The position numbers were made by a program, and so were the translations under genes. A DNA stretch of 64,000 nt, from contig CAZJQI010000008.1 in assembly GCA_964548275.1 (NCBI GenBank), forward strand, positions 14,286 to 78,285, in the 5' to 3' direction. Each line of letters opens with the position of its first letter. Position 1 is the stretch's first letter. Shown here piece after piece: positions 3,075 through 54,871 of this stretch. The notes below the pieces were generated by a model. That model was not told the DNA's origin. It saw only the letters and a program-made list of their open reading frames with translations, and searched no databases. Source of the DNA: an uncultured Gemmatimonadales bacterium (GTDB lineage: Bacteria; Gemmatimonadota; Glassbacteria; GWA2-58-10).

Positions 3075-3193
3075 AAATGGTTAAAAGATTACATTGAAGT
3101 GGTCGGAGGTCCGTGCCCCTTTGCATTTTGATAAGAGATTTACCCTGAGAGATAAACTGCGATTAGCTTTTCTACCCTAATCCGGAGAGAGTA

Positions 3194-3550: not shown

Positions 3551-3558
3551 GCTGGAAG

Positions 3559-4452
3559 ATGAAAGAATCGCTCGCCACACCGGGCAGTCTCTATGTTGTC
3601 GCCACGCCGCTCGGCAACCTGGATGACATTACCCACCGGGCCGTGGAATTTCTTAAAAAAGTACCGGTAATTGCCTGCGAGAATACCCGCCACAGCGGCA
3701 AATTGCTCTCCCGCTACAGTATAAAGGCCCGCCTGATCAGCTATCACGAGCACAACGAACAGACAGCGGCAGGCCAGGTTGTTTCTTTGCTGCAGTCAGG
3801 GTTTGATGTCGCTCTTATTTCCGATGCCGGAACGCCGGGTATTTCAGACCCTGGCTACCGGGTGGTGAAACTGGCCCTGGAGCAGGGTCTGGATGTGGTT
3901 CCGTTGCCCGGCCCTTCCGCCCTGACAACCGCGCTGAGCGTCTCAGGCCTGCCCACGGACAGTTTCTATTTTGCCGGGTGGGTCCCTTCCCGTGAAAAAG
4001 AACTCGAGAAAACTCTCGCAAAACTCTCCTCACTCAAGGCTACGCTGATTTTTTACTGTCCGGCCCGGAAAATAAAAAACGTTGTTGTCAAGTTCCGGCA
4101 GGTTCTCGGCAACCGTCGGGCTGTGGTCTGCCGCGAGCTTACCAAGATTCACGAGGAAATCCTCCGCGGTTCCCTTTCGGAGCTGGAAAAAACTCTCGCA
4201 GATAGAGATTCGGTCAAAGGCGAGATAGTGCTGATCGTGGAGGGTAACAGGGCAAAAGAGATTGAGCCTGGCGAGGATCTGGCAGCTCGTCTGGCAGAAT
4301 TGCTCGATAGCCTGGATAATGTCGGTTCAATGGGCGCTAAAAGGCTTACCACGCTTGCCGCCGAAAGACTTGGCAGTCCGAGGAACAGGGTTTACCCGCT
4401 GGTCTGTGCCTACTTGAACAGGCTAAAAGAGGGACAAGTAAGCAAAGATTGA
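3559..4452 (+). CDS. rsmI: 16S rRNA (cytidine1402-2'-O)-methyltransferase RsmI
   Basis: Signature GSLYVVATPLGNLDDIT and tetrapyrrole-methylase fold motifs. The ATG at 3559 is preferred over the TTG at 3547, which overlaps the ylbF stop. Confidence 0.85.
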   Translation: MKESLATPGSLYVVATPLGNLDDITHRAVEFLKKVPVIACENTRHSGKLLSRYSIKARLISYHEHNEQTAAGQVVSLLQSGFDVALISDAGTPGISDPGYRVVKLALEQGLDVVPLPGPSALTTALSVSGLPTDSFYFAGWVPSREKELEKTLAKLSSLKATLIFYCPARKIKNVVVKFRQVLGNRRAVVCRELTKIHEEILRGSLSELEKTLADRDSVKGEIVLIVEGNRAKEIEPGEDLAARLAELLDSLDNVGSMGAKRLTTLAAERLGSPRNRVYPLVCAYLNRLKEGQVSKD

Positions 4453-4462
4453 AAGAACCAGC

Positions 4463-5740
4463 CTAGTGGGGGCTCTGCAGGGCAATTATACCGGGCTTGT
4501 CGGGATGCTGAACTTGCCAGATTATTTCTCCTCCGGGGGCAAGCTTGGTTATCAGGCCTGATTCCGAACTTACATAGACCGTATTGTCGTGATTGCTGTA
4601 TGCCAGGCTCCAGGGCCTGCCAAGTCCGGAAATCCGTGCGGTAAAAGCGCCGCTCCTGTCGATTTCATAAACCATGTCACTGCCGTAATCCGCCACCCAG
4701 CAAATATCTCCTGTGGTATTAACAGTCAGGGAGGTCGGATCGCTGAATGTACTCGTTTTTGACACCATATCCTCATCATCGAACAGGAACACTTTCCTGG
4801 AGCCGGTATCGAGAATCCATGCTTCCGTGCCCTGCTCACCGAGCACCACGCCCTCTGGGGTGACAAATTCCGAGTGGGAGTAATGAACAATCTTTCCCTC
4901 ATTCATCTTGACTCTGGCCACCATAGGCTCTGAAGAGCCAACCCAGACATCCCCTCTCACATTATCCACTGTAATCGAGGTTACAGGCAAATTAGTGGAT
5001 TGGGAAAAAAGCAGCTCGCCGCTTCCTATCTGGAAGTGGTAAAGTAAGCCGCTATCACCCTTTATGGCAATCCAGACCGTACGGCCCCTTCTGCTGAACT
5101 CGAACGCGGCCACAGAGCTAAGGGTCGCACCCTCACCGATAGGTTCTCCACTGAACGTATAGCGGTAAATTTCATGGGAAGCCCTGTCGAGAATCCAGAG
5201 CTCCTGGTTCGCAGGATCGATCTGGATATCCTGGATGTTGAAAAATGTTGCGTCAAGTCTTCGGATCTCGTCCTTGAAATCAGGTGTCATGAGAATTATC
5301 TCGCCGTAATCGAACAGCTCCATCCATCCGAATATCTCTCCGGGAGTGGCGATATCCGGCAATGTCTTGGGCTTTTCGGTATTGCCTTTGAGCACGAACT
5401 GAAGATTGTAGCTGTAGGACACGCCGTTTGTCGCAGTGTTGTCCAGAAAAAAAGTCGTTCCAGGAGAGAGTATACTGTCGTTAAGCACCACAGTATCAGG
5501 TAAATCGGAGGAAAATCTCTGCACCCGGATACCCTCAAGATCGTCGAAATCAAGAGGATCCCAGAGGAGAAAAACCTGTCCGTTGCCAGCAAGCGCGTTA
5601 AAGCCCAAATTTGTCTGATAGCGATCCGGATTGCACGGATCGATTGGGTTGGACCGCGACCGGTCCGAGCAGCCCAGGCCTGACAGAAAGATTAATAGGA
5701 TTGGAATCGATAACTTGAGCAGCGCGGGTATCTTTTTCAA
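4463..5740 (-). CDS. Lipoprotein with predicted beta-propeller (NHL/YVTN-like) repeats, function unknown
   Basis: Signal peptide with Cys (LLIFLSGLGCSDRS). Repeated beta-strand-rich segments with WxxD/GxxY patterns. Confidence 0.45.
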   Translation of the reverse strand: MKKIPALLKLSIPILLIFLSGLGCSDRSRSNPIDPCNPDRYQTNLGFNALAGNGQVFLLWDPLDFDDLEGIRVQRFSSDLPDTVVLNDSILSPGTTFFLDNTATNGVSYSYNLQFVLKGNTEKPKTLPDIATPGEIFGWMELFDYGEIILMTPDFKDEIRRLDATFFNIQDIQIDPANQELWILDRASHEIYRYTFSGEPIGEGATLSSVAAFEFSRRGRTVWIAIKGDSGLLYHFQIGSGELLFSQSTNLPVTSITVDNVRGDVWVGSSEPMVARVKMNEGKIVHYSHSEFVTPEGVVLGEQGTEAWILDTGSRKVFLFDDEDMVSKTSTFSDPTSLTVNTTGDICWVADYGSDMVYEIDRSGAFTARISGLGRPWSLAYSNHDNTVYVSSESGLITKLAPGGEIIWQVQHPDKPGIIALQSPH

Positions 5741-19562: not shown

Positions 19563-21872
19563 ATGACCAAAAGCAGTCTGGCAGTGGCTTTAATGTTGAT
19601 TTTTGCGCACTTGAACGATCTCTGCGGCATTGACCTTCATCTCTATGAGGAAAGTTATCTGGACAGAGTATCGGAGCCGGTTACCTGCGGCGTTCCTTTG
19701 GCCCGGGGATACTGCAATTCGGCGGACGAGCTGGTTTTGAAAATCGGTGGTCAGCCTGTGCCGGTTGAAATCCGCGAGGTCAGCCGCTGGCCGGACGGTT
19801 CTTTGCGATGGGTTCATCTTGATTTCCAGGTAAGTGTGCCCGAAGGACGCCTGATTACTGCCTCGCTGGACAAGGGAAAGAGAGCCCCGGTGGATTCAAA
19901 GCTTAAAGTTGAAAAAACACCGCGTGCGATAACTGTCTCCACCGGCAGGCTCAAAGTCGAGGTCTCCCGGAGAAATTTCAATGTCTTCAATCGCATTCAG
20001 GTTCCCAGCGAGGACGGCCGGTATTTCAGGACACTGGTCAATCCTCACAGGCGCGGACTGGTCGCCTGGGCCGGCAAACAGGAATTCCTTGCTGCTAATG
20101 ACACCCTCTCGGTCGTGGAAATCGAAAGCAGCGGGCCAATACGCCTTGTGCTGCGCGCCGAGGGAAACTTTCAGGACACCAACGGCTTGAAACTGTTCCA
20201 CTATATCTGCCGGCTTTATTTCTACAGCGATTCCCCTGTTGTCCGTCTTGCTTTCACTTTTGAAAACCGTGACCCGGTGATCGAAAACAAGGTAGCTCTT
20301 CAGGGCCTCCACGTGGAAATCCCGACCACGATCAGGGGCGCAGGCGGAGCCTATGATATCGGAAAGCCGGGGGGAGATGTTCAGGGAATTTTCCCAAGCA
20401 GGGTTTCAATGGCCTGGGCCCTTGTCAATTCATCCTCCCTGTCCAGTTTTGGAACGGAATCCTTCTTTGAAATCGCCGGCAGCCCGAAAGAGGAAAAATC
20501 CTCTGAACTGGGCTGGATCAGTCTGGGCTCATCCAAAGGCATGGTGGGGGTGGGACTGCGCTACTTCTGGCAGATGTGGCCCTCGATCCTGGAGGTGAAT
20601 GCCAGCGGCCTGATAAGGGCGGGTCTCTTTCCGCAAAGGTTAAACCGCTCGATCGATATCTATTCTGGGGTGGCCCGCACGCATTACCTGCGCTTTGCTT
20701 TTCTTGGCGTGGGCGATCCGGAACGTATAGGCTCCCTGGTGAACTCCTGCCAGCAGCCTCTTCTTGCACTGGCTTCAACCAGCTACTACTGCCAGGAAAC
20801 ACGTGCCTTCGGAAACATCTTCGACCGCGATCTCAGAAATTACCCGAAAGAAAACAGAAAGATTGTAGAACACGTTGATGGCGAGCTGGATTATGGCTAC
20901 AGTCACATGATGAATATGATTGATGAGCGCACCGTGAACGGGGTTACCCGCGACAGTTACGGGTTCCTGAACTGGGGAGACGGATTGCATTATGCATGGG
21001 TGCCCGGAGAGGATAGTGAGTTGAACCTTTCCTGGAACCACCACTATTACGACCTTCCCCATATGAGCTGTATCGAGTTCGCCAGAACCGGCTGTCTCTG
21101 CTGGCTGGATTGTTTCCTTCCGCAAGCCCATCACCTGATGGACGTGCATATGGTTCATTTCGATCCTGAAAATGAGCTTAACGGCCACAATCGCTACTGC
21201 CCGAGTACCGACCATGTTCGCCTGGACCCCAAGGATGCCTCGGATTACCAGACTGCAAAAGTCTACGTTCACCCAAACCAGAACCATTCGAAAACACAGG
21301 GCATGTTCGACCGGTACCTGCTTACAGGTGATGAAAGAAGCTTTGAGGTTGCTCTTAAGGCGCTCGAATTTGCGGCTTCATTCGGCGCTTACGGTGATTT
21401 CAAACAGCCCAGGGGCGCCGCCCACCAGGTGATGACACTGGTTTATGGCTACCGAATAACCGGAGATAAGCGTTACCTCGATATTGCCCGGAGTTCATTC
21501 GAAAAATGGTGGGAGCACTTTCAAACAACCGAAACGAAATTCACCAGGCGCTTTTTCCAGGTCGGGCTGCTGCTCGAGGCCTTTATTGATTTGTACGAGG
21601 AAACCGGGGACAGGAGAATTATCGAATTTACCAGGCAGGCAGTCGATTGGATGCTGGAGAACAGACCGAATGACAGGTTCCCCAACATGAGCCTGGCTCT
21701 GGGTTTCCTGTCTGCCAGGCCCAAGGAGCCGCGCTACACCGAAATGTTGAAAGAGTATCTTATGCTCTGGAAAGGTGTTCAGGGAAATCCGTTCAAGGAT
21801 TTCGCCATGCACGGCAGGAATGTCGCCAGGGCGCTTTATTATCTGTCAAACGAGGCCAGAGGCTCGAAATGA
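19563..21872 (+). CDS. Secreted protein, unassigned family, paralog 1 of a tandem triplet (N-terminal beta-rich region, C-terminal alpha-helical region)
   Basis: 769 aa with signal peptide. Blocks shared with paralogs 2 and 3: EPVTCGVP, VSRWPDGSLRWVHLDFQ, LFHYICRLYF, ENRDPVIENKVALQGLHVEIPT, WGDG(L/M)HYAW, WNHHYYDLPHM, HHLMDVHMVHF, NRYCP.TDHV, HSKTQG(M/L)FDRY..TGDER, FKQPRGAA.QV. Confidence 0.7.
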   Translation: MTKSSLAVALMLIFAHLNDLCGIDLHLYEESYLDRVSEPVTCGVPLARGYCNSADELVLKIGGQPVPVEIREVSRWPDGSLRWVHLDFQVSVPEGRLITASLDKGKRAPVDSKLKVEKTPRAITVSTGRLKVEVSRRNFNVFNRIQVPSEDGRYFRTLVNPHRRGLVAWAGKQEFLAANDTLSVVEIESSGPIRLVLRAEGNFQDTNGLKLFHYICRLYFYSDSPVVRLAFTFENRDPVIENKVALQGLHVEIPTTIRGAGGAYDIGKPGGDVQGIFPSRVSMAWALVNSSSLSSFGTESFFEIAGSPKEEKSSELGWISLGSSKGMVGVGLRYFWQMWPSILEVNASGLIRAGLFPQRLNRSIDIYSGVARTHYLRFAFLGVGDPERIGSLVNSCQQPLLALASTSYYCQETRAFGNIFDRDLRNYPKENRKIVEHVDGELDYGYSHMMNMIDERTVNGVTRDSYGFLNWGDGLHYAWVPGEDSELNLSWNHHYYDLPHMSCIEFARTGCLCWLDCFLPQAHHLMDVHMVHFDPENELNGHNRYCPSTDHVRLDPKDASDYQTAKVYVHPNQNHSKTQGMFDRYLLTGDERSFEVALKALEFAASFGAYGDFKQPRGAAHQVMTLVYGYRITGDKRYLDIARSSFEKWWEHFQTTETKFTRRFFQVGLLLEAFIDLYEETGDRRIIEFTRQAVDWMLENRPNDRFPNMSLALGFLSARPKEPRYTEMLKEYLMLWKGVQGNPFKDFAMHGRNVARALYYLSNEARGSK

Positions 21873-21899
21873 ATAAGCCTGCAAGGCACGGATCGCTCT

Positions 21900-22070
21900 T
21901 TAACCGAAAAAAATTCCTCGAAGCTCTGCTCCGTGGTAGCCCACTCCTGAGACAAACGTAGGGGCAACCGGCAGGTTGCCCGCGGGGTGGGGATGAAATT
22001 GTGGCATCAAATTTATAAAAAGAATTCCGAACAGATACACCGCGGCTTGCCGCGGGGTAGATCATTTGAT
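21900..22070. repeat. Dispersed intergenic element, copy A (between paralogs 1 and 2)
   Basis: Left motif gaaaaaaattcctcgaagctctgctccgtggta, internal hairpin ggcaacc-ggca-ggttgcc, right motif gatacaccgcggcttgccgcggggtagatcatttgat with embedded tight hairpin ccgcggc-tt-gccgcgg. Confidence 0.6.
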
Positions 22071-22107
22071 TTTGATAATATAACTCAGCCGGTAAGGACA
22101 TACGATC

Positions 22108-24417
22108 ATGTTAAAAAACTTGCTTGCCGTTTTAATAGCCCTGTTCATTACTGTTTCATCCGTTGGAGCGGTAAAACTCTCAGTTGAGGAAAGAAGCGGG
22201 ATTGTGCGGGTAAGCGAGCCTGTCACCTGCGGTGTGCCTTTTGCCGAAAGTGCTGTTTATTCGGAAGACAGCCTCGTTTTGCTGAGAGGCACCTTGCCTG
22301 TGCCGGTTGAAATCCGCCAGGTCAGCCGCTGGCCGGACGGCTCTTTGCGCTGGGTTCACCTGGATTTTCAGGCCAGTGCTGGGCCATGGGAAAACGTCCG
22401 CTTTTCTCTGGAAAAAGGTCCCGCTCAGCCTTTAGCTTCCAGTCTCGAGGTAAAGCGTACTGCCCGAGGCTTCACAGTCGAAACCGGAAAGATAAAGGTC
22501 GAGGTGAAAAGGCGGGGTTTCAATGTATTTAACCGCGTCCTGCTTGCCGGGGAAAACGGAGATTTTGTGAAGGAACTTGTTGCTCCGCACAGTCGCGGAC
22601 TGGCCGCCTGGGCCGGTGGAGAGGAGTATCTTTCCGCCAATGACCAGGCCTCGACACTCCGGGTTGAAAGCTCAGGCCTCATGCGCGTGGTGCTGCGGGC
22701 GCAAGGAGAGTTGAAAAACAGATCGGGGAACAAGCTTTTTCATTATATCTGCCGGTTATATTTCTACAACGGCTCTCCAGTTGTCCGCCTTGTCGTGACT
22801 GTGGAAAACAGGAATCCGGTAATCGAAAACAAGGTCGCTCTTCAGGGACTTCACGTGGAAATTCCCACAACAATGGTTGAAAGCGGCACGGTTTTTCATA
22901 TCGGCGGCCGGGATAGACATCTGGAGGGCCGGTTTGCCGGTTACGGTTCCAATGCTTTTATTCTGGCGCCCTCCTCGGAGCGCTACACTTACGGTGGGGT
23001 GGTGGAAAGTTGGCCCGGCGGCAATGCCAAGACCGAAAGCTCGGACCGGCTGGGCTGGATTGGTATTGCAAGCTCTCGCGGCGCGGTGGCGGTTGGCTTG
23101 CGCGACTTCTGGCAGATGCATCCTTCAAGCCTGGAAGCAGCCTCGGATCAGGGCCTGCTGCTGGTCGGCCTTTTCCCCCTGCGGCTCGGCAGGTCGATTG
23201 ATATCTATTCCGGAGTGTCTCGTACCCACTACCTGCGCTTTGCCTTCACCAGCCAAAACGATCCCGAGTTGCTGTGCTCGCTGACCAGAGCCTGCCAGAA
23301 ACCTCTTACTGCTGTGGCCTCACCGGCCTATTACTGCCGGAAAAGCCGAGCTTTCGGCAAACTGGTAGAGCGAGAATTGTCTCTGTTCCCGGAAGAACAC
23401 CACGCGCTGGTTACCACGGTGCAGAGAGAAACGGACGGGGGTCTGGCCAATCTGCTCTCGCTGGTGGAATCCCGCACTAAAAACGGCGTGACAGTGGAGG
23501 GTTACGGCTATCTGGACTGGGGAGACGGAATGCATCATATCTGGGTGCCTGGAGTGAAAGACCCGCATAACATCTCCTGGAATGGTCATTACTATGATCT
23601 TCCTCATACCTGCTGCCTGGAATACGTGAGCACAGGCAACTGGCGGTACTACGACTTTTTCCTCAGCCGGGCCCAGCATTTGATGGATGTCCATATCGCG
23701 CATTTCGAGCCAGGTAACAAGCTTAACGGTGCCAACCGCTACTGCCCGCCCACCGACCATGTGAGAATCGATCCCAGAAGGCGGGGAGATTTCACCTCCG
23801 CCAGGGTTTACGTATCAAACTCGACCAATCACCACAAGACCCAGGGGCTTTTCGACCGTTTTTATCTTACCGGCGATGAACGGGCGCTCGAGGTGGCCCT
23901 GAAGGCTGTGGAATTCGCCAATTCTTTCGGGGCCTACCGGGATTTCAAACAGCCGCGCGGGGCTGGTTTCCAGGTCCTATCCCTGCTCGAGGCCTACCGT
24001 TACAGCGGCGAAGCCAGATACCTGGAAACCGCGAAAATGACATTCGAGGCCTGGTGGGAGCATTTCAGCACCACGGAGACCAAGTTCACCCGGGGCTATT
24101 TCATGGTCGGGTACCTGCTGGAGGCTTTCGTGGACTACTACGAGATTACCGGGGACAGCCGGGCTGTGGAATTCATCCGCCAGGCCGTGGACTGGATGAG
24201 CGCCAGCCGCCCGAACGACTTATTCTCCAACATGACACTGAGTATCGCCTTTCTGGCGCACCAGACCGGGGAGACCGAATATATCGAACTGGCGAAAAAA
24301 CACCTTTCCCGCTGGCACGGTGTCTGGGAAAACGCTTTCAAGGATTTCGGCCTTCACGGCAGGGGCATTGCCAGGGCGCTCTACTATTTTTCCGATCAAG
24401 CCAGAGGAAGCGATTGA
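22108..24417 (+). CDS. Secreted protein, unassigned family, paralog 2 of tandem triplet
   Basis: 769 aa with signal peptide. Colinear with paralog 1 along its entire length (by eye roughly 55-65% identical) and carries the same conserved blocks. Confidence 0.7.
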   Translation: MLKNLLAVLIALFITVSSVGAVKLSVEERSGIVRVSEPVTCGVPFAESAVYSEDSLVLLRGTLPVPVEIRQVSRWPDGSLRWVHLDFQASAGPWENVRFSLEKGPAQPLASSLEVKRTARGFTVETGKIKVEVKRRGFNVFNRVLLAGENGDFVKELVAPHSRGLAAWAGGEEYLSANDQASTLRVESSGLMRVVLRAQGELKNRSGNKLFHYICRLYFYNGSPVVRLVVTVENRNPVIENKVALQGLHVEIPTTMVESGTVFHIGGRDRHLEGRFAGYGSNAFILAPSSERYTYGGVVESWPGGNAKTESSDRLGWIGIASSRGAVAVGLRDFWQMHPSSLEAASDQGLLLVGLFPLRLGRSIDIYSGVSRTHYLRFAFTSQNDPELLCSLTRACQKPLTAVASPAYYCRKSRAFGKLVERELSLFPEEHHALVTTVQRETDGGLANLLSLVESRTKNGVTVEGYGYLDWGDGMHHIWVPGVKDPHNISWNGHYYDLPHTCCLEYVSTGNWRYYDFFLSRAQHLMDVHIAHFEPGNKLNGANRYCPPTDHVRIDPRRRGDFTSARVYVSNSTNHHKTQGLFDRFYLTGDERALEVALKAVEFANSFGAYRDFKQPRGAGFQVLSLLEAYRYSGEARYLETAKMTFEAWWEHFSTTETKFTRGYFMVGYLLEAFVDYYEITGDSRAVEFIRQAVDWMSASRPNDLFSNMTLSIAFLAHQTGETEYIELAKKHLSRWHGVWENAFKDFGLHGRGIARALYYFSDQARGSD

Positions 24418-24537
24418 ACGGCAATCCCGATATGTTATCCTTTTGCCTGAAGTAAAATTAAGGCTTGATAGAAATTTTGAGAACAACTACAGCAGATCCA
24501 AATTCAGGAAATCTCGCTGAATGAATGGGAGTCGGTT

Positions 24538-27486
24538 ATGAGAAACAGGCTGCTGCAGGCAGGTGTTTTGTTATTTTCACTGGCATCGGTTTTACATGCC
24601 ATAGAACTGACAGTGGCTGAACGCAGCGGAATCGGCCGGATAAACGAGTCGGTCACCTGCGGCGTTCCCCTGCCCGTGAGCTGGGTAAATTCAACTGATG
24701 AACTGGTGCTAAGGGTTTTCGGAGAAATCGTGCCTTGCGAATTCAGGGAAGTCGCTCACTGGCCAGACGGCTCTATTCGTTGGGTGCATCTGGATTTCCA
24801 GGCATCCGTGGAGGCCAATGCAAGGCTCTCCCTCTGGCTGGACAAGGGAACTCCGGCACAGTTTGATTCCAGGCTCGAGGTGGTTGAAGAACAGGGCAAG
24901 GTAACAGTATCTACCGGGAGAATCAGGGCCGAGGTTCTCGCGGCTGGATTTAACGTGTTCAACAGTGTCTGGATCGATACCGGATCGGATGGAGATTACG
25001 ACAAACAGCTGGTAAGCACGCACGACAGGGGTCTGGTCATGTGGGCAGAAGGCCAGGAGTACCTGAGTTCAGCTGACCAGAATACAGAATTAACTGTGGA
25101 AAGCCAGGGAACCATGCGGGTGGTGCTCAAAGCAGAGGGTGATCTCAAGAGCACCACCGGCGCAACCGGATTCCATTTTATCTGCCGCCTGTACTTTTTC
25201 AATAACTCCCCCCTTGTTCGCCTGGCTTACACCTTCGAAAACCGCAGCCCTTATCTGGAGGGCCGTGAGGACATGGTGACTCTGGAAGGCTTGCACGTGG
25301 AGCTGCCCACAGCAGATTCGCATTCCGAGTTCTTCCTCGGACTGCCTGATCAGGATCTGAAAGCGACATCTTCTGAGGCAGGAGGCAATCAAATCTATCT
25401 CGGCACCAGCGCTACGAACCAGTTGATCTACTACCATGGAGAAAGCCAGGACAACGTTGGTAATCCCAAGGCGCTGAAAACAGACCGCATCGGCTGGATC
25501 GGGATGGATGTTGTTGAAAGCGGGCAAGTAAAATCACTGGTTGGCATGGGCCTGCAGGATTTCTGGCAGATGCATCCAAGCACGCTGGAGGTGGATGCCG
25601 AAACCGGATTGATTACCGCCGGGCTTATCCCGTATAGACTTGACACTCCCATCGATATTTACTCCGGGGTGGCCCGCACCCATTATCTGCGTTTCGTCTT
25701 TTTGCACGAGGAGGAAGCCTCCAACCTGGGAAAGATGCTCGCCGCCTGCCAGAAACCCTTGCTTGCAATAGCCGAGCCTGAATATTACTGCAGGGACAGC
25801 AATACGTTCGGTAAGATAATGGAACGAAATCCCGCACTCTATCCGCCCGAGCACCTGGAGGAGGTTCAGCGCGTTGAGAGAGAGCTCGATCTGGGCCTGG
25901 AGGACCAGCTGCGCAAGCTCGACAACCGCACGAAAAACGATGTAACCTGGGAGAGTTACGGCTTTCTCAACTGGGGTGACGGCATGCACTACGCCTGGGA
26001 ACCCGGGGTTCACGTTGCGCGAAATATCGCCTGGAACCACCACTATTATGACCTTCCGCACATGAGCAGTGTCGAGTTCGTGCGCACAGGGGATTACCGC
26101 TGGCTGGATTATTTTCTCTCCCGTGCCCACCACCTGATGGATGTGCACATGGTTCATTTCGGTCCAGGCAAATACCTGAACGGCGCCAACCGCTACTGCC
26201 CTCCAACCGACCACGTGCGCAGAGATCCCACAGATGATAGCGATTACACTACTGCTCCGGTTTACGTATCACCTTACACCAATCACCACAAGACTCAAGG
26301 GTTGTTCGAGCGCTGGTATTTCACCGGGGATGAACGCAGCCTGGACTGCGCTCTCCGGGGAGCTGAATTCGCCAGATCGTTCGGCGGGTATCCTGATTAC
26401 AAGCAGCCGCGCGGCGCGGCTTTCCAGGTCCTGACCCTGCTTGCCGCCTACCAGTGCACCGGCGACGATAAATACCTCCTGACTGCAAAAACCACTTTCG
26501 ACACCTGGTACAGCTATTTCCGCAGCACGAGCATCAAGTTCACCCAGGGATATTTCATGGTGGGATTTCTGCTCGAGGCTTTTATCGACTACTATGAAAT
26601 CAGCGGCGACAGCAATGTCGTAGATTTTGTCAAGCAAGCAGTGGACTGGATGCGCGCCAACAGGCCAGAAGAAAAATATTCGAACATGGCGCACGGTATC
26701 GGTTTCCTGGCCGCACAACTCGAAGACCCTTCCTATACGACATTACAAAAAGAATACCTCACAAGCTGGTACGGCACCTGGTCAAACGCCTACAAGGATT
26801 TCGGCCTGAACGGCAGGAGTCTCGCCCGCGCACTGTATTACCTTTCTTATGAAGGACAGGGTTACGAACTGCGGATGACCGGAGACTACGATGATGACGA
26901 AGCCCTGACAATCAGCGACCTGGTCGCACTGCTGGTCAAAGGGATGCAGGATGAGTCAAACCCGGAGATAGATTTCAACCGGGACGGCAAGTACTCTATC
27001 ATGGATGCACTCGCCCTGCTGATATATATCCGCGGGCACAGCGCAGGTGTTTCACTGGCCGCAGCAGGCAGGGATCTGAACTCGAAATTCCGGCTCACCC
27101 CGGTAGAGCTGGCTGAGCTGTTGGAACAACTGGTCAAGCTGGATCTTACTGAAAGTGAATGGGAAGCGTTAAATTCGCTACTAGACCGTGAGCAACTGCC
27201 CAGGGCGTTCACCCTGTCGCAGAACCGGCCGAACCCGTTCAACCCCACCACGACTATCAGTTTCGGCATCCCCCAGGGGCGTGCTCTGGAAGTGAAGCTG
27301 GTTGTGTATAACCTTAGAGCGATGCTGGTAAAGGTGCTTGTGGAAGAGGTAAAAGAGCCGGGATATTACAGTGTGCTCTGGGACGGCACTGATAACCAGG
27401 GAAAAGCGATTGGGTCCGGGGTGTATTTTTACCGCCTCAGTGCAGGCGACTTTTCTGCTGTGCGCAAAATGGTTCTGATGAAATAA
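24538..27486 (+). CDS. Secreted protein, paralog 3 of tandem triplet, with added C-terminal dockerin-like module and T9SS C-terminal sorting domain
   Basis: First ~780 aa are colinear with paralogs 1 and 2. A dockerin-like stretch follows (DYDDDEALTISDLVALLVKGM...DFNRDGKYSIMDALALLIYIRG). The last ~85 aa (PNPFNPTTTISFGIPQGRALEVKLVVYNLRAMLVKVL...GVYFYRLSAGDFSAVRKMVLMK) match the T9SS / Por secretion tail pattern. Confidence 0.75.
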   Translation: MRNRLLQAGVLLFSLASVLHAIELTVAERSGIGRINESVTCGVPLPVSWVNSTDELVLRVFGEIVPCEFREVAHWPDGSIRWVHLDFQASVEANARLSLWLDKGTPAQFDSRLEVVEEQGKVTVSTGRIRAEVLAAGFNVFNSVWIDTGSDGDYDKQLVSTHDRGLVMWAEGQEYLSSADQNTELTVESQGTMRVVLKAEGDLKSTTGATGFHFICRLYFFNNSPLVRLAYTFENRSPYLEGREDMVTLEGLHVELPTADSHSEFFLGLPDQDLKATSSEAGGNQIYLGTSATNQLIYYHGESQDNVGNPKALKTDRIGWIGMDVVESGQVKSLVGMGLQDFWQMHPSTLEVDAETGLITAGLIPYRLDTPIDIYSGVARTHYLRFVFLHEEEASNLGKMLAACQKPLLAIAEPEYYCRDSNTFGKIMERNPALYPPEHLEEVQRVERELDLGLEDQLRKLDNRTKNDVTWESYGFLNWGDGMHYAWEPGVHVARNIAWNHHYYDLPHMSSVEFVRTGDYRWLDYFLSRAHHLMDVHMVHFGPGKYLNGANRYCPPTDHVRRDPTDDSDYTTAPVYVSPYTNHHKTQGLFERWYFTGDERSLDCALRGAEFARSFGGYPDYKQPRGAAFQVLTLLAAYQCTGDDKYLLTAKTTFDTWYSYFRSTSIKFTQGYFMVGFLLEAFIDYYEISGDSNVVDFVKQAVDWMRANRPEEKYSNMAHGIGFLAAQLEDPSYTTLQKEYLTSWYGTWSNAYKDFGLNGRSLARALYYLSYEGQGYELRMTGDYDDDEALTISDLVALLVKGMQDESNPEIDFNRDGKYSIMDALALLIYIRGHSAGVSLAAAGRDLNSKFRLTPVELAELLEQLVKLDLTESEWEALNSLLDREQLPRAFTLSQNRPNPFNPTTTISFGIPQGRALEVKLVVYNLRAMLVKVLVEEVKEPGYYSVLWDGTDNQGKAIGSGVYFYRLSAGDFSAVRKMVLMK

Positions 27487-32520: not shown

Positions 32521-32735
32521 GTTTAATCGAGAAGAATTCCCCGAAGCTTTGCTCCATAGTAAACAACCCGGGGATCGGCAGGTAATCCCCATTAACAAAA
32601 GGGAATCAATATGTAATCCCCCTAAAAAAGGGGAAGACAGGGGGTTGTCTTGATGTGTTCGCCCTCGGAGGAAATAAGATCGACCAAATTCATCATTATG
32701 ATACTCCGCGGCTTGCCGCTGGGCAGCTCATTTAT
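32521..32735. repeat. Dispersed intergenic element, copy B (upstream of mtaB)
   Basis: Left motif tttaatcgagaagaattccccgaagctttgctccatagtaaa. Internal units taatccccattaacaaaaggga / taatccccctaaaaaagggga / agacagggggttgtc. Right motif gatactccgcggcttgccgctgggcagctcatttatt. Confidence 0.6.
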
Positions 32736-43453: not shown

Positions 43454-44311
43454 TTGGAATTAAGCGAACAAACCAAGGAACTAATCAGCAAAGCATTAGC
43501 TGAAGATATCGGTAGCGGCGACTACACCACGTTGTGGTCCGTGCCTGGTGATCATAGAACTACGGCCAGGATTATCGCTCGGGGCACTGGAATTGTCGCC
43601 GGCATGCCGGTGGCCAAGTATCTTGTCACGCGGTTCGACCCGGAACCGGTCCTGGAATCGGCGACCCCGGACGGCCAGATAACAACTGCCGGGCAGGTGG
43701 TGATAGAGCTGACAGGTTTGACCAGACATCTTCTGAGCATTGAGCGTTCCCTGCTCAATTTTCTTCAACGGCTCTCCGGTATTGCCACCCTGACCCGCAG
43801 GTTTGTCGACAGGGTCGAAGGCACAGGTGTGAAAATCCTCGATACACGCAAAACCACTCCCGGTTTGAGAGAACTCGAAAAGTATGCTGTGAGAGTTGGT
43901 GGCGGTTTCAACCACCGCCTCGGACTCTACGATTACGTGTTGCTCAAGGAAAACCATATCTCCGCCGCAGGAGGAATTACTAAGGCTGTCCAGGCGGTGA
44001 AAAAGGCGAATCACCGGAACCTGCCGGTCGAGGTCGAGACCTGCACACTGGATGAAGTGCGCGAAGCGTTGAAAGCAGGGGTTTCGCGGATCATGCTTGA
44101 TAACATGACAGTGGAGCAGATGAAAGTTGCGGTGGAGCTTATCCGCAACATCGATGCCCGCCCTGTCCCGGAGATAGAGGCCAGCGGCGACATTAATTTA
44201 AAAACCGTCATGGAGGTAGCCGCAACCGGGGTGGATTTTATTTCAGTCGGTACGTTGACCCACTCCGCGCCTGTGCTGAACTTAACCATGATTATTGAGC
44301 CCGGCCTGTAA
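43454..44311 (+). CDS. nadC: Nicotinate-nucleotide pyrophosphorylase (carboxylating) NadC
   Basis: ALAEDIGSGDYTT, LDTRKTTPGLR, LLKENH motifs. Confidence 0.85.
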   Translation: MELSEQTKELISKALAEDIGSGDYTTLWSVPGDHRTTARIIARGTGIVAGMPVAKYLVTRFDPEPVLESATPDGQITTAGQVVIELTGLTRHLLSIERSLLNFLQRLSGIATLTRRFVDRVEGTGVKILDTRKTTPGLRELEKYAVRVGGGFNHRLGLYDYVLLKENHISAAGGITKAVQAVKKANHRNLPVEVETCTLDEVREALKAGVSRIMLDNMTVEQMKVAVELIRNIDARPVPEIEASGDINLKTVMEVAATGVDFISVGTLTHSAPVLNLTMIIEPGL

Positions 44312-45395: not shown

Positions 45396-46166
45396 ATGAT
45401 CCTCGCTTTTGATATCGGCAATACGCATATCGTGATGGGACTTTATCAAGGCATGAAGCTGATTCACCACTGGCGGTTCGACAGCAAAATCGACCGAACT
45501 GTGGATGATTACGGCCATCTCGTGCTATACATGCTTGAACGTGTGTCCAAAGTAAATAAGGTAAAGGGAGTGGTGATCGGATCGGTGGTGCCCATGCTGA
45601 CTTATGTGTTCGAGAAACTCTCTCGCCGCTACTTTAAAGTAAATCCGCGGCTGGTGGACGGAAAAGCTGATCTTGGGATAACTTACGAGGTCAATTCTCC
45701 ACATGAACTTATCGGTTCGGACCGTATCGCAAATGCCCTGGCAGTCAGGGAGCGCTATCACGAGAACTGCATCGTGGTGGATGTGGGCACAGCCACTACT
45801 TTCGATCTGATCTCTGCGAAAGGAGCCTACCTCGGCGGTGTAATCGCACCCGGAATCAGAACCTGTGCCGAAGCCCTGATAGAAAAAGCAGCAATGCTTT
45901 CCAGAGTGGAAATCGAAGCCCCGGCCAAGGTGATCGGCAAGGATACGAAAACCATGATGCAATCGGGGATATTTTACGGGGCAATCTGCCAGATCGATGG
46001 TATAGTGGAAAGGTTAAAGCAGGAATGGGGTGTCGGGTGCAAAGTCATCGCCACCGGCGGGTTTGTCAGCATGATTGCTAAATTCAGCCGCCAGATTGAC
46101 ACAGTTGATCCAAACCTCACTCTCGACGGTTTGCGAATCGCGTTCGACAAACTGGCAAAAAAGTAA
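45396..46166 (+). CDS. coaX: Type III pantothenate kinase CoaX
   Basis: MILAFDIGNTHIVMGLY ... VDVGTATTFD ... GGV motifs. Lies downstream of birA, the usual synteny. Confidence 0.85.
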   Translation: MILAFDIGNTHIVMGLYQGMKLIHHWRFDSKIDRTVDDYGHLVLYMLERVSKVNKVKGVVIGSVVPMLTYVFEKLSRRYFKVNPRLVDGKADLGITYEVNSPHELIGSDRIANALAVRERYHENCIVVDVGTATTFDLISAKGAYLGGVIAPGIRTCAEALIEKAAMLSRVEIEAPAKVIGKDTKTMMQSGIFYGAICQIDGIVERLKQEWGVGCKVIATGGFVSMIAKFSRQIDTVDPNLTLDGLRIAFDKLAKK

Positions 46167-46191
46167 CTGTTTCGTCCTTTACTTTGGTTTC

Positions 46192-46660
46192 TTTAATCGA
46201 AAAGAATTCCCCGAAGCTCTGCTTTGGTGTAAATTGCTTTATGGTTTTATCCTTGTTTTCATAGAGTTGCCTCGTGACACATACAATATTTATTCTCATC
46301 CTTCACAATTCGGGAAGAATGGGATTTAAACCTGGGGATCTTATTTCAGATCGTGCTTGAAAGCCACCATTCCCTCCTAACAAGGGGGTACATTCCAAAT
46401 TTTCCCCTATCAAGGGGGTTCATTCCAATTCCCTCCTAACAAGGGGGTACATTCCAAATTTTCTCCTATCAAGGGGGTTCATTCCAATTCCCCCCTATCA
46501 AGGGGGGACATTCCAAATTCCCCCCTATCAAGGGGGGAGACAGGGGGGTGTTATATTAAACAGTTGGGGTTTGGTACCCGAAATCGGGATCACGAATTTC
46601 AGGGATTCACACAAAAATTACACTGATACTCCGAGGCTTACCGCGGGGTAGTTCATTTAT
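46192..46660. repeat. Dispersed intergenic element, copy C (expanded copy, contains the tandem hairpin array)
   Basis: Left motif tttaatcgaaaagaattccccgaagctctgctttggtgtaaa at 46192. Right motif gatactccgaggcttaccgcggggtagttcatttat at 46625. Interior holds expanded repeats ending in agacaggggggtgt, as in copy B. Confidence 0.6.
46368..46549. repeat. Tandem array of ~29-30 bp hairpin-forming units (alternating two unit types, ~59 bp higher-order repeat, about 3 copies)
   Basis: Contiguous units cattccaa(a)ttccctcctaacaagggggta and cattccaaattttcccctatcaagggggtt. Each contains a C-tract...G-tract able to pair (CCCCC-N6-GGGGG). There are no intervening spacers. Confidence 0.8.
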
Positions 46661-46823
46661 AAACAAGTATTTTTTCCAAAATATTTCTTTGGAAGTTGAA
46701 CAAGTTATTAACAAAAAGAGTCTTTAAACCAGGTCCAATTTCTGCCTTGCCAGTTTAAACCCGCCTTCATCCCAGCCTAATAAAAGGCAGTATTAGATAA
46801 AATGGCAACAAATGGAGAATTAA

Positions 46824-47528
46824 ATGGGTCAGATGACTAAAGATGAACTTCACCAGTATGATGGAAAACAGGGGAACAAGGCTTACGTGGCCTTTGAAGG
46901 GAAGATTTACGATCTTACCGGAAGCAAGCTCTGGAAAAACGGGGTTCACCTGAAGACCCACCATGCAGGCCACGACCTGACTTTGGCCATGAAAGCCGCA
47001 CCGCACGGCCCACAGGTAATGGAGCGTTATGAGGCGGTTGCAGAATTGGTCGAGGAGAAAGCGGTTGAAGCCGCAAAGCCGGCGCTGAAAACCCCGGGCA
47101 AGCTCGCGACAATGATCCTGGACCGGCACCCTCATCCCATTTCAGTGCATTTCCCGATAGCCCTGAGCATCAGCGCTGCGTTGTTGTCAATCCTCAGTCT
47201 TTATATACCGAACCACGCGCTTGAAAAAGCCGCTTTTTATAACATGATTTTCGCAGCAGTGACCACACCGGTATCCATCTTTACCGGTGTTTTAAGCTGG
47301 TATTACAATTACAGCGGCATCTGGACTCACATCTACCGCATGAAAATCCTTCTCTCAATCGTTCTGATGGTATTATTTGCCGCTGCCTTGATTGTACATT
47401 TTGGTTTTCTCACCAGTGGTGAGAATGGTGGATTCTGGTACTGGCTCTACACAATGAGCGTTCTTTTCATGGCTCCAACAGTGATGGGCCTTGGTTATTA
47501 CGGTGGAAAAATAACTTTTCCCTCTTAA
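46824..47528 (+). CDS. Cytochrome b5-like heme/steroid-binding domain fused to a polytopic membrane domain
   Basis: DELHQYDGKQGNKAYVAFEGKIYDLTGSKLWKNGVH...HAGHDLT is the b5/MAPR-type fold pattern. C-terminal half has 4-5 TM helices. Confidence 0.55.
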   Translation: MGQMTKDELHQYDGKQGNKAYVAFEGKIYDLTGSKLWKNGVHLKTHHAGHDLTLAMKAAPHGPQVMERYEAVAELVEEKAVEAAKPALKTPGKLATMILDRHPHPISVHFPIALSISAALLSILSLYIPNHALEKAAFYNMIFAAVTTPVSIFTGVLSWYYNYSGIWTHIYRMKILLSIVLMVLFAAALIVHFGFLTSGENGGFWYWLYTMSVLFMAPTVMGLGYYGGKITFPS

Positions 47529-52340: not shown

Positions 52341-52412
52341 AAAAAGGGAAAGGTTATTCTTGTTTGACTAAAGGGGAGCGGGCCTGTGAGCCGCTTCCCT
52401 TTTTTCTTTTTT

Positions 52413-52500
52413 AGTCCAAAAGAATCGCTCGAATCTTTACCCCGGAGTAATCCTTCCAGAAGATCAGTCTTTAATCCCCCCTTTGGAAAAGACTCGTTCT
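52413..52500. repeat. Possible degenerate copy D of the dispersed intergenic element
   Basis: agtccaaaagaatcgctcgaatctttacc resembles the left-end motif (about 20/31). Followed by taatccttccagaag and tttaatcccccctttggaaaagac, which resemble internal units. Confidence 0.3.
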
Positions 52501-52909
52501 CTGCACTAGCTTTGGAAAGGTGATTATAATTGGTGCAAAGGTTGCCAATCACAGTATTTGCTTCTCCTATCAGATGACGGGGGAAACTTTCAGCATGAAG
52601 ATGTTTGCTGAAATCCTGCCGCCGATTTATCGATTGCGGTGTTATGCAGCTTAAAATGAGGGGAAAAACATTTATTTTTTTTTGCTATGATCAATATACC
52701 ACTTGACACTTTGAAAGAAAACAATTAATTATAATTAAAGAAGTTTAAAATCCTTCCGATTCCGGGCAGGAGGACATAATATTGCGATAAAACAAAAGAA
52801 AGCCAAACCAAGGCATAACAGTTTTAATATAGAGAATAGCGGTTTATATCCCCCCTCCTATTAATCCCTTATAATCTATTATTCGAAGTAATCTGCGCAG
52901 GAGGGCTCT

Positions 52910-54085
52910 ATGACCTGTCTTAAGATCAGAATACTGGCTTTATCTGCTGTTTATGGGATCACGCTGCTTGTTACAGAGGCTTTTTGCCAGGGAATCGATA
53001 GAGATGAGTACAGCGGAATAGATAATGACATCAATTCTGTTGTGATAACAGGCAAATCAAACCTGAAGACTGCCGAATTCCTAGAGATTCCTGCCTCCGC
53101 CCGTGGAATAGCACTGGGGAGCGCCTTCAGCGCAGTTGGCGATGATGTCAATTCCATATGGTGGAACCCGGCTGGACTGTCTTATCTAACCAGGATCGAG
53201 ACCTCGGTTTCGCACTTGAATTACAATCACCAATTCGGTATGGATTACACCTTCGCCGCCGCGGGAATTCCGATAATCAGAAACAAACTCACGCTCGGTG
53301 CTTTTTTCGGCTATTTTGACTACCGGGATTTTGAAATCACATCTATATCTCAACCCACCGGTACGGGGGAAATAGCCAAATTCTTCGATTATCAGGCCGG
53401 TGGCTCTTTGTCCTACCGTATTTTAAAAAATCTATCTTTGGGTTTCAGCCTCAAGCGAGTGCATCTTGACATGGGCGCCGCATACAAAGCCAGTGCGCTG
53501 GCTTTAGACGCAGGAGCCTTATACCGCTACAGCCATTCCAATCATCAGCTAAGCCTTTCCATTTCAGTACAAAACTACGGGACCGATTTTTCCAGCGAAA
53601 GAGTGATAGACAATGACATCAATCTGGATACAACCAGGGTAAGCCGCTATGGATTTTATAAAACTGTTACCTATGAGTTGCCTAGTTCGGTAACACTCGG
53701 GTTCGGCTACCAATATCAATTTGCTCAGAACTACAACATTCTGACTTCCTTCGAGTACTGCAAACCCAAAGAATTTTTAAACTCATATCAAAGTCTTAAG
53801 TCGCTTGGCATGGAATTCAATTGGCCGGTGTCAAAATTTCTGAAAGCCTCTGTCCGCGCAGGACGGCTTACCCTGGAAGGCCGCCGGCAGGCAGTATATG
53901 TGGAACAATTAAAGTATATGTTTCTAGGGGAAGGGGAATATACCCTGAAAAACCGGACCGAATCCCGATTAGGCTGCGGCTTGGATTTCACTGTCGCCAG
54001 CAGGTATGTCAGACTCGATTATGCGAGGAACATGAGGCAGGGCATACCGAACCAGGATTTTCTCACCCTGAGTGTAGGAATTTGA
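52910..54085 (+). CDS. porV: PorV-like (LptO / FadL-like) outer-membrane beta-barrel protein, probable T9SS component
   Basis: 391 aa with signal peptide. EFLEIPASARGIALGSAFSAVGDDVNSIWWNPAGLS matches the conserved PorV/UPF0164 N-terminal block. Remainder shows alternating beta-strand patterns. Confidence 0.7.
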   Translation: MTCLKIRILALSAVYGITLLVTEAFCQGIDRDEYSGIDNDINSVVITGKSNLKTAEFLEIPASARGIALGSAFSAVGDDVNSIWWNPAGLSYLTRIETSVSHLNYNHQFGMDYTFAAAGIPIIRNKLTLGAFFGYFDYRDFEITSISQPTGTGEIAKFFDYQAGGSLSYRILKNLSLGFSLKRVHLDMGAAYKASALALDAGALYRYSHSNHQLSLSISVQNYGTDFSSERVIDNDINLDTTRVSRYGFYKTVTYELPSSVTLGFGYQYQFAQNYNILTSFEYCKPKEFLNSYQSLKSLGMEFNWPVSKFLKASVRAGRLTLEGRRQAVYVEQLKYMFLGEGEYTLKNRTESRLGCGLDFTVASRYVRLDYARNMRQGIPNQDFLTLSVGI

Positions 54086-54109
54086 GGCCTGGATGTGGAG
54101 GCGAGCTCT

Positions 54110-54871
54110 GTGAGCTGTCTCAAGATTAGAATACTGGCTTTATCTGCTGTTTGCGGGATCACGCTGCTTGTATCCGGCGGCTGCCAGAGCGACAATCCGC
54201 TCGCACCCGGGAAAGGAGCGATTCTGCAGGATTACCTGCCGCTGCAGGGCAACAGCCAGGCTTACAGATTCACCTTGTTTTACTCATCGTGGCATGGACC
54301 GGATTCCTATTACTCCCATAACATAAACGGCATTTGCCAGATAATTATCATAAGAGGCCCGGACAATGCATCCTATTTTCACCTGATATCGACTGCTATA
54401 TTCAACGTTGAATTAGACTCCATTTTTAAACAACCGTATTATCCCGAATACGAAACTACCGTGAATAAAGATTACAGTATCTCCCATTCCAGTGATTTAT
54501 ACCTGTCCGCGGATTCCCTGTGGTACGAGGTGGACGATTCAGATACCTCGGATGCCGTGACCCGCAGGTTTGCAATGAATTACTCCAAAGACACGGGAGG
54601 CAGCGTCCTGGACCTGGCCCCGTTCCTTCCGCCCGGCTGGGAAATCAAACTATTTGGGCACAGTCCCGAAATATTGTCGAATAATACAGCCGAGACGAAA
54701 GGAGACACCCTTATTTATACTTTCGATGTAAGGCACAGACCTACAGATGTATATGAAGGTACAGCAAAGTTTCTGAAAGGCGCAGGACTCTTCTCCATCC
54801 AGTATACATTTTCGTGGGGCGAGGGGACGCTCTCAATTACACGCACGACTATCTCCTACACGAAAATCTGA
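54110..54871 (+). CDS. Lipoprotein of unknown function; shares its RBS and signal-peptide DNA with porV
   Basis: GTG 54110 preceded by GGAGG. Signal SCLKIRILALSAVCGITLLVSGGC is encoded by a 67 bp stretch that is 62/67 identical to the porV 5' end. Mature protein has no recognisable domain. Confidence 0.5.
   Translation: MSCLKIRILALSAVCGITLLVSGGCQSDNPLAPGKGAILQDYLPLQGNSQAYRFTLFYSSWHGPDSYYSHNINGICQIIIIRGPDNASYFHLISTAIFNVELDSIFKQPYYPEYETTVNKDYSISHSSDLYLSADSLWYEVDDSDTSDAVTRRFAMNYSKDTGGSVLDLAPFLPPGWEIKLFGHSPEILSNNTAETKGDTLIYTFDVRHRPTDVYEGTAKFLKGAGLFSIQYTFSWGEGTLSITRTTISYTKI

Follow-up and report, generated by a model that had tools for sequence, protein, structure and literature searches.

It is well known that members of the IS200/IS605 family transpose by a single-strand 'peel and paste' route that uses the Y1 HUH enzyme TnpA, with a preference for the lagging-strand template being typical of the family. 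The REP and BIME sequences have a conserved 5' GTAG head followed by a palindrome, are arranged in inverted or alternating orientation and go together with a single-copy RAYT that is flanked by inverted REPs. Other kinds of short repeats are recognised by their surroundings: in a simple-sequence contingency locus the repeat tract is part of an ORF or of the promoter spacer belonging to the regulated gene, in a CRISPR array the direct repeats are separated by unique spacers of similar length, and in a type III toxin-antitoxin system a tandem RNA repeat stands immediately upstream of the gene for a ToxN-family endoribonuclease. For IS608 it was described that the target TTAC flanks the left end and that the element moves as a single-strand circle, with TnpA acting on the end hairpins (PMC5027513). 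Transposase-free derivatives of IS200/IS605 elements, called PATEs, were described in Haloquadratum walsbyi; they have no inverted terminal repeats, carry palindromes near both termini, make no target duplication and are below transposase-coding length, and terminal-only PATEs arise when the core is lost through repeat-mediated deletion (PMC3119063). The pneumococcal BOX elements have the structure boxA-(boxB)n-boxC, where boxB folds independently and its count varies by slippage or unequal crossover (PMC3049150).

Here we consider an array of hairpin units that lies downstream of coaX in the window, i.e., in the whole stretch of 64,000 nucleotides that was analysed. We propose that a non-autonomous derivative of the IS200/IS605 family (a PATE, or loosely a MITE) carries the array as its central module of variable length, a reading to which we assign a probability of about 0.82. 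A single strong tandem array is detected by TRF at 46369–46536, which can be read either with a 30-nt period and 5.7 copies (83% matches, score 238) or with a 59-nt period and 2.8 copies (93% matches, score 294), topping all tandem repeats in the 64-kb window, where no other scores above 57. With direct-repeat family D3, the per-unit folds and the identity matrix taken together with TRF, the array is delimited as six hairpin units of 29–30 nt at 46369–46546 on the + strand, the units starting at 46369, 46398, 46428, 46458, 46487 and 46517. The hairpin core CCCCTATCAAGGGGG occurs six times consecutively in the array when up to 3 mismatches are allowed, and the whole window contains 11 matches to it as compared with 2.7 ± 1.6 after shuffling, none of 100 shuffles getting to 11. 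The six tandem units of about 29–30 bp given in the preliminary description are thus confirmed by TRF, by the core counts and by the folds. Its higher-order repeat of about 59 bp also holds, since units 1 and 2 (46369–46427) and units 3 and 4 (46428–46486) form a duplicated 59-nt block with identity at 58/59 positions. The alternation of two variants, which was described for the array as a whole, applies to units 1–4 but not to units 5 and 6, which belong to a third variant, CCCCCCTATCAAGGGGGG, that is more stable than the others. Two recent block duplications are visible in the array.

When the units are folded singly, each gives a stem of 6–8 bp between a C-run and a G-run and a 4-nt loop (AACA or ATCA), with energies from −5.5 to −16.4 kcal/mol. 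The earlier statement that every unit folds in this manner is therefore right for all six, with the qualification that the stems of units 1, 3 and 4 each require one T.G pair. All six units are in direct orientation, they are contiguous with no spacers between them, and the GTAG head is absent from them; their linkers, ACATTCCAAAT, show no relation to the ATCAGTATGTAG that homologous arrays usually have. After the last unit comes the conserved junction GGGGGGAGACAGGGGGGTGT (46532–46551, + strand), which was defined by alignment of the array-type copies and is common to copy B (see below) and to array-type copies on other contigs. In ssDNA folds of whole elements a separate hairpin forms for every unit, beside the hairpins of the left and right ends. 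Because each unit folds on its own, the unit count is free to change without disturbing the ends.

The array is contained in copy C, a non-autonomous IS200/IS605-type element (PATE/MITE) of 460 nt that extends over 46198–46657 on the + strand, as delimited by its left and right end modules; the location inside this copy and downstream of coaX had been described correctly, judging from the end modules and Pfam. Among the matches listed, copy C is the longest transposase-free copy (the script maximum is 459, while the coordinates give 460). Directly 5' of it, at 46192–46197 on the + strand, lies TTTAAT, which from the conservation of the flank in the family is presumed to be the target or left cleavage motif. 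The left-end module with its subterminal hairpin occupies 46198–46231 (+ strand), with CCCCGAAGC at 46209–46217, the loop TCT and GCTTTGGTG at 46221–46229, and this stem is decayed, having mismatches with respect to the family consensus CCTCGAAGC/GCTTCGGGG. The right-end module GATACTCCGAGGCTTACCGCGGGGTAGTTCATT, also with a subterminal hairpin and ending in TTCATT, was placed at 46625–46657 (+ strand) by the end-module search and the hairpin covariation, and mismatches are present in both end hairpins of the copy. The segment from the left end to the array (46232–46367, + strand, about 135 nt) is peculiar to copy C: blastn against all loci finds the same locus only, with no counterpart in any other copy fetched, and just its final ~45 nt are similar to the short linker of other array-type copies. 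It is noted that a sigma-54 promoter, which was considered in the 5' module, is rejected on direct reading because the GG-to-GC spacing is 8, not 10.

Upstream of copy C is coaX, encoding type III pantothenate kinase (45396–46166, + strand; Pfam Pan_kinase and named homologues), and downstream is a gene for a cytochrome b5-like/DUF2231 membrane protein (46824–47528, + strand; Pfam Cyt-b5/DUF2231), the gap between the two being 657 bp. The array lies 275–455 nt upstream of the start codon of the latter gene, and between the two come the right end of the element and then ordinary spacer of about 165 nt. Across 46330–46766 no ORF reaches 40 aa, and the terminator scan gives no intrinsic terminator within 45900–47000.

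The history of the insertion can be followed at the coaX locus of relatives. By its CoaX homologues, of which the named ones are 70–75% identical, the source organism is placed close to Candidatus Glassbacteria/Gemmatimonadota. Of the other assemblies, one (JGI 3300008516) runs across the locus and is identical there, and two short-read assemblies end at the element, the breaks being at the 5' module and just past the array. In locus L133, where CoaX is 94% identical, an element starts from the same TTTAAT, next to a 3' flank of coaX that is conserved. The core of this element is of the short, standard layout with two units, one of which is split by an IS5-like insertion, and its right flank is a different gene. 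An origin of this right flank by recombination between window copies was considered and dropped, as no match to it is found in the window. In locus L134 (CoaX 88% identical) coaX and the cytochrome b5-like gene are 67 bp apart and the element is absent, and it is absent downstream of coaX in L135 (87%), L136 (85%) and L137 (74%) as well. Since these four more distant relatives lack the element and the 94% relative has it, the insertion downstream of coaX is young relative to the gene order, and both the array of six units and the additional piece of 135 nt are peculiar to the window lineage.

The window holds three complete copies of the element, as compared with a chance expectation of 0.01 and 0.00 for the two end modules. 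The 5' module reads TTTAAT CGAAAAGAATTCCCCGAAGCTCTGCT and onwards, the 3' module is the GATACTCCGAGGCTTACCGCGGGGTAGTTCATT given above, and in copies A, B and C the two modules have identical order and orientation with different cores between them. Copy A (21905–22066, + strand, 162 nt) has no array, its core being one GTAG-headed hairpin, GTAGGGGCAACCggcaGGTTGCCC, and near-identical counterparts of it are found in loci L015, L009 and L011. Copy B (32528–32732, + strand, 205 nt) belongs to the array-type subfamily and has two hairpin units, at about 32585–32603 and 32616–32633, with GGGGAAGACAGGGGGTTGTC directly after them. A probable fourth copy in a decayed state is suggested, weakly, at 52412–52500 (+ strand) by repeat family D10 and by-eye comparison with locus L101; this copy has a degenerate left end followed by GGAGTAATCC...GATCAGTCTTTAATCCCCCC, similar to the start of an array-type copy, and no recognisable right end. 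All of the window copies are on the + strand, for which the GC skew is +0.02 and the share of coding bases is 74%, values that agree, though weakly, with the lagging-strand preference. Inspection by eye suggests for some copies a plausible long-range stem that would close the array (e.g., in copy B ACAACCC/GGGTTGT, in copy A CCCACTCC/GGGGTGGGG), but it is absent from the minimum-free-energy folds and inconsistent across copies, and was rejected.

Outside the window, a scan with one genome per species gave six stretches with the 5' module in three MAGs, namely Candidatus Glassbacteria, Bacteroidota and a MAG labelled 'archaeon' (four contigs), and the module is present in at least 120 metagenome contigs. 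In viral contigs the unit pattern has 0 matches, and the one match of the 5'-module pattern, which lies within the coding sequence of a high-GC phage, is ascribed to chance. We extracted 149 copies, from among the matches listed plus the window. Among the matches listed, 9/149 are of IS length (529–559 nt by the script, 545–570 nt with flanks), 68/149 are transposase-free with lengths of 136–460 nt (median 162), and 24/149 are 40-nt fused-end copies, consisting of a single hairpin that has the head of the left end and the tail of the right end. The other 48/149 among these matches have no recognisable right end, and for 18 of the 48 the end of the contig is no more than 300 nt away.

The family consensus is CCTCGAAGC-TCT-GCTTCGGGG for the left end and CCTCGCAGC-TCT-GCTGCGGGG for the right end, so that the two end hairpins are alike in direct orientation, being identical in some IS copies, and terminal inverted repeats are absent. 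Across 37 distinct sequences the right-end stem is paired at 90.7%, as compared with 34–60% once the register is slid, and 13 double-sided compensatory changes are seen in it versus 3.0 ± 1.6 after shuffling (0/500 shuffles reach the observed number). Positions −8 to −3 of the left flank are T/T/T/A/A/T in 90–135 of the 148 copies listed, the conservation being limited to T-T-T-A-A-T-C-A and the sequence being random beyond −9. The right boundary is sharp at TTCATT, with random flank after it (99 copies among the matches listed), and because of this sharp stop followed by random flank we conclude that there is no target-site duplication, none being visible in the flank logos (148 left and 99 right flanks among the matches listed). 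At L009/L075 a second copy begins immediately past the TTCATT of the first one. A search among 130 loci for a pair of filled and empty sites precise to the nucleotide gave none, only self-hits and one false lead (L107/L108). The metagenome copies listed show no bias in how they are oriented relative to adjacent genes (60:53 upstream and 39:52 downstream), and thus no sign of the lagging-strand preference. Rfam yields nothing relevant, whether for the window at gathering thresholds, for the 751-nt locus with E values as high as 10 or for nine related loci, the best match being a Tetrahymena snoRNA with E = 0.84. Locus L020 carries an unrelated fluoride riboswitch.

When the hairpin unit was searched for in other loci, it was found in homologous elements with 2 to 7 units, and in all the loci fetched (774 kb) it occurs essentially only within the framework of left end and right end or remnants of it. 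In this array-type subfamily the left end is followed by a short linker, after which come n units of ~30 nt, then GGGGGARACAGGGGGTTGTC, about 55 nt of spacer and finally the right end. The number n is 2 in window copy B, L053 and L133, 4 in L035 and L098, 6 in window copy C, 7 in L101 (one unit disrupted) and at least 6 in L117, where a two-unit higher-order repeat is also present. The instability of copy number that the preliminary description had anticipated is accordingly borne out at the level of the family, by these counts of 2, 4, 6, 7 and at least 6 units and by the two block duplications, while the one other full assembly of the locus has the same number. At different loci the array-type copies adjoin unrelated genes. 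Kept across the subfamily are the period of 29–33 nt and the stems, C4–6/G4–6 plus T-A pairs, and variable are the two central loop bases and the linkers of 10–12 nt. Units in L035 and L101 have GTAG or GTAA heads before the palindrome, and these units are also direct. The same IS5-like IS is found in two independent copies, those of L117 and L133, each time directly behind CCCCCTTAAG of a unit.

The link with a transposase comes from the IS-length copies. Five of the nine were translated (L026, L111, L118, L126 and L131), and an ORF of about 150 aa lies between the two ends. Three of these five products were scanned and match Pfam Y1_Tnp with E from 3e-29 to 5e-35; one of the scanned products also matches the NCBIfam equivalog transpos_IS200 with 124 bits against a cutoff of 55, and the motifs HVHFL and FWTSGYY are present in the transposase products. 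The homologues number 5198 proteins at E ≤ 1e-30, which are named IS200/IS605 in Flavobacterium and Bacteroidetes records and 'REP element-mobilizing transposase RayT' at JGI; this search placed no autonomous copy in the window's own lineage. The 64-kb window contains no tnpA/Y1 gene, tblastn of five TnpA sequences giving nothing below E = 0.027, and the right-end stem of the window type (CCGCGG...CCGCGG) has no exact match on any autonomous copy found. Since its end stems are mismatched, there is no tnpA in the window and a right end with the CCGCGG stem is on no autonomous copy found, copy C is probably an immobile fossil.

Based on these data the following mechanism can be proposed. Mobilisation would be in trans, by a TnpA that uses the single-strand 'peel and paste' route. 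Because this route needs just the end hairpins and the cleavage motifs, the interior of the element would be free cargo. In such an interior the units may have multiplied by slipped-strand mispairing or unequal recombination, and for copy C the presumable steps of expansion are that a two-unit block was duplicated once and that a single unit, the last one, was duplicated once. The array would have no dedicated role in the host, and if coaX or the cytochrome b5-like gene were affected at all, as for instance through hairpins in read-through RNA, this would be a by-product. What speaks against this proposal is that no empty site precise to the nucleotide was recovered, that neither a tnpA in the window nor an autonomous copy with the window-type right-end stem was found, that the metagenome copies are unbiased in orientation, and that the unit stems are nearly invariant. 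The best reading is therefore that the array is a passenger tandem module, ordinary selfish DNA rather than a dedicated regulatory switch.

By contrast, it can be supposed that the array is an adaptive module, either a structure in ssDNA or RNA that aids excision or retention, or an mRNA stabiliser or attenuator exapted by the host, or a landing pad for mobile elements. With this supposition, which we consider unlikely, the near-invariant stems as opposed to the variable loops and linkers would reflect selection, and judging from the aligned units this pattern could indeed indicate selection on the hairpins rather than pure neutrality. A related possibility, also with a low probability and compatible with a transposon origin through exaptation, is that a functional structured RNA is formed by the array or by the entire element, i.e., a stabiliser or attenuator of a transcript between coaX and the cytochrome b5-like gene, a role that REP and BOX sequences can have, or a small RNA or protein sponge of repeated hairpins. 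In favour of such an RNA are the stability of the +-strand RNA fold, which exceeds that of shuffles (z = −3.1), the retention of three of the unit stems by T.G pairing, which is a legal pair on the + strand only, the conservation of unit stems in the subfamily while loops and linkers vary, and the sigma-70-like consensus match at 46258–46287 in the extra segment, which points into the array; moreover, BOX modules are reported to alter the expression of neighbouring genes (PMC3049150). However, the promoter scan gives sigma-70-like matches at chance level (2 found versus 1.9 expected), a terminator-like site is absent, no Rfam family appears even at E up to 10, the genes beside array-type copies are unrelated, the linkers are not conserved (ACATTCCAAAT here and ATCAGTATGTAG elsewhere), and the element is missing altogether in relatives with 85–88% identical CoaX. 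One specific form, a CsrA sponge acting through GGA in the −-strand linkers TTGGAATG, was dropped because the linkers ATCAGTATGTAG of homologous arrays are without GGA.

That the units are REP-like, forming a BIME-like cluster kept by a domesticated RAYT instead of being passive cargo, we regard as very unlikely. The units in L035 and L101 that open with GTAG or GTAA and then a palindrome, the core of copy A, which is a classic GTAG plus palindrome, and the 'RayT' label of the transposase homologues at JGI are in its favour, but the label is a generic COG name, the transposase scores as an IS200 equivalog and belongs to a multi-copy IS between direct left and right ends, the units of copy C have no GTAG head and are all direct, not alternating, and the units are confined to the end framework or its remnants in the 774 kb of loci. 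The preliminary description had suggested a contingency locus, a transcription insulator or a protein-binding array, and one may think of a phase-variation locus or a spacing-sensitive binding array that tunes the cytochrome b5-like gene, since the repeat number does vary between 2 and 7 units among family members and the array is upstream of that gene on the same strand. To this we give an even smaller probability: the start codon is 275 nt past the end of the array, with the right end and ~165 nt of spacer intervening, the 88% relative has the gene pair 67 bp apart without the element, the same type of array lies beside unrelated genes elsewhere, and a conserved linker motif for a binding protein is absent. 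Rather than within an ORF or in a promoter spacer, the array is situated within a transposon-derived element, 275–455 nt before the start codon, and it travels with that element to unrelated loci, so that, with unconserved linkers and no terminator-like site, the suggested regulatory functions find no support. Finally, a reading as a CRISPR array in degenerate form or as a ToxI-like antitoxin repeat of type III, to which the short structured direct repeats and a weak CRISPR-DR7-like match at 46244–46279 (E = 4.2) could point, has a nearly vanishing probability, being effectively refuted by the missing spacers and missing partner genes; the match is non-significant and outside the array, and the downstream gene encodes a Cyt-b5/DUF2231 membrane protein, 275 nt off, not a ToxN-type nuclease. 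The units are contiguous and no CRISPR repeat family reaches the gathering score, and the earlier view that the array is not a CRISPR is correct. Among the possibilities mentioned in the preliminary description, the 'inert relic' that it gave as the alternative is closer to the evidence than the functions that it proposed.

With the passenger-module reading, a hairpin array of 180 nt and a gap of 657 bp after coaX are explained in the annotation as transposon debris, and the array is guarded against being mistaken for a regulatory or CRISPR-like feature. Moreover, the ends, the flank motif and the modular layout are defined for an IS200-type family that is widespread and very compact, and for the derivatives of it that have no transposase, in uncultured lineages (Glassbacteria/Gemmatimonadota-like, Bacteroidota and others), and it is noted that elements of the family disrupt short-read assembly. 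The copies with 0 to 7 units provide a natural series for testing how much interior structure is tolerated by single-strand transposition, and the variable hairpin core is a possible marker for strain typing, comparable to BOX elements.

Now we compare the element with the known systems. As in IS608, ISDra2 and IS200, one strand carries both the left-end and the right-end hairpin, the left end adjoins a specific short motif (TTAC in IS608 and TTTAAT in the present family; PMC5027513), no duplication is made and the full-length copies have a Y1_Tnp transposase; the difference from these IS200/IS605 members is that the window copies are without transposase and have decayed end stems. With REP/BIME sequences it shares the clustering of short, G+C-rich extragenic palindromes, a GTAG head on some units of the family and the tie to the Y1 HUH enzyme superfamily, but the present units are all direct and embedded in a bounded mobile element, those of copy C have no GTAG, and the present enzyme behaves as a multi-copy IS200 transposase. 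The likeness to PATEs is as follows: both have no terminal inverted repeats, palindromes near both termini, no target duplication and no transposase, share their termini with IS200/IS605-type transposons, occur as terminal-only versions (40 nt in the present family and 52 bp in PATEs) and have other mobile elements inserted within them, which in the present family are the IS5-like IS of L117 and L133 (PMC3119063). The present family differs in being bacterial (Glassbacteria/Gemmatimonadota-like, Bacteroidota and other MAGs), in having as partner a very compact IS of about 545–570 nt with tnpA only, and in that the copies of one of its subfamilies contain tandem hairpin units whose number varies, a module that is not found for PATEs in the available part of PMC3119063. 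This module resembles BOX elements, where conserved 5' and 3' modules likewise surround a variable number, from 0 to many, of tandem internal modules that fold by themselves and differ in count between copies (PMC3049150). Because BOX elements have inverted terminal repeats and target duplications, the resemblance is one of architecture only; the present family has neither the repeats nor the duplications, the partner of BOX is of the DDE type, and the boxA, boxB and boxC sequences, as judged from the descriptions in PMC3049150 only, are unrelated to the element. The element thus belongs to a kind of system that is already known, being a new member of its family whose modular core is a BOX-like variation.

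The interior of the element, a non-coding derivative of the IS200/IS605 type, is generally free cargo. The cores differ widely between subfamilies across many of the loci fetched for comparison (e.g. L019, L020, L027, L103 and L120), with the core of one other subfamily being a nested palindrome based on GTCATTCCCGC...GCGGGAATCC...GGATTCCG...CGGAATGAC and the core of another being formed by CAGAATYC repeats, the number of which is variable (L016, L017, L023 and L043). In copy C (window 46198-46657), an extra ~135-nt segment at 46232-46367, which separates the left end from the array of hairpin units, has no equivalent among the other fetched element copies. This segment contains a sigma-70-like TTCATA-18-TACAAT at 46258-46287, directed into the array, and a weak, non-significant match resembling the CRISPR-DR7 repeat at 46244-46279 on the minus strand (E = 4.2).

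It is noted that in two of the loci, L117 (~160-1770) and L133 (~3086-4690), a hairpin unit is interrupted by an IS5-like IS directly 3' of CCCCCTTAAG. This IS encodes DDE_Tnp_1 and DUF772, its two copies share 95% identity across 1406 nt, and the element copies that host them occupy different loci. Two scenarios can be considered here: either the loop of the unit is a favoured target of the IS5-like IS, or the composite is mobile as one unit.

In the right-end stem, the T.G pair at columns 8 and 24 of the right-end alignment A3 is kept in 29 of the 37 distinct right ends. The palindrome seems to be imperfect by design at this position, and the pair may be a feature recognized by TnpA. Note also that elements occur as a head-to-tail pair in L009 (1519-2030) and in L075, with the TTCATT of the first directly abutting the left end of the second. 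These pairs suggest that the right-end terminus can be used as a target instead of TTTAAT.

Elsewhere in the window, 223 bp at 44088-44310 are missing from L003 (contig of JGI 3300028837), both sides being 100% identical to the window. The missing stretch is the 3' part of nadC, called there at 226 aa versus 285 aa, and its absence represents a strain-level deletion. At 19563-27486 lie three paralogous genes in tandem (769, 769 and 982 aa), with a DNA identity of 60-90% in patches, and the gap between the first and second holds element copy A. A 78-nt direct repeat of 87% identity (52894-52971 and 54094-54171) is located at the starts of two neighbouring, apparently paralogous genes.

The autonomous IS in L026, L111, L118, L126 and L131 consist of a tnpA of ~150 aa and two ends of ~40 nt each. 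In both L126 and L131, the hairpin of the left end is a 22-mer identical to that of the right end. With such identical hairpins, repeat-mediated deletion would account for the 40-nt fused-end copies being so frequent. End to end, the autonomous copies measure only ~545-570 nt, which is small for an element of the IS200 group.
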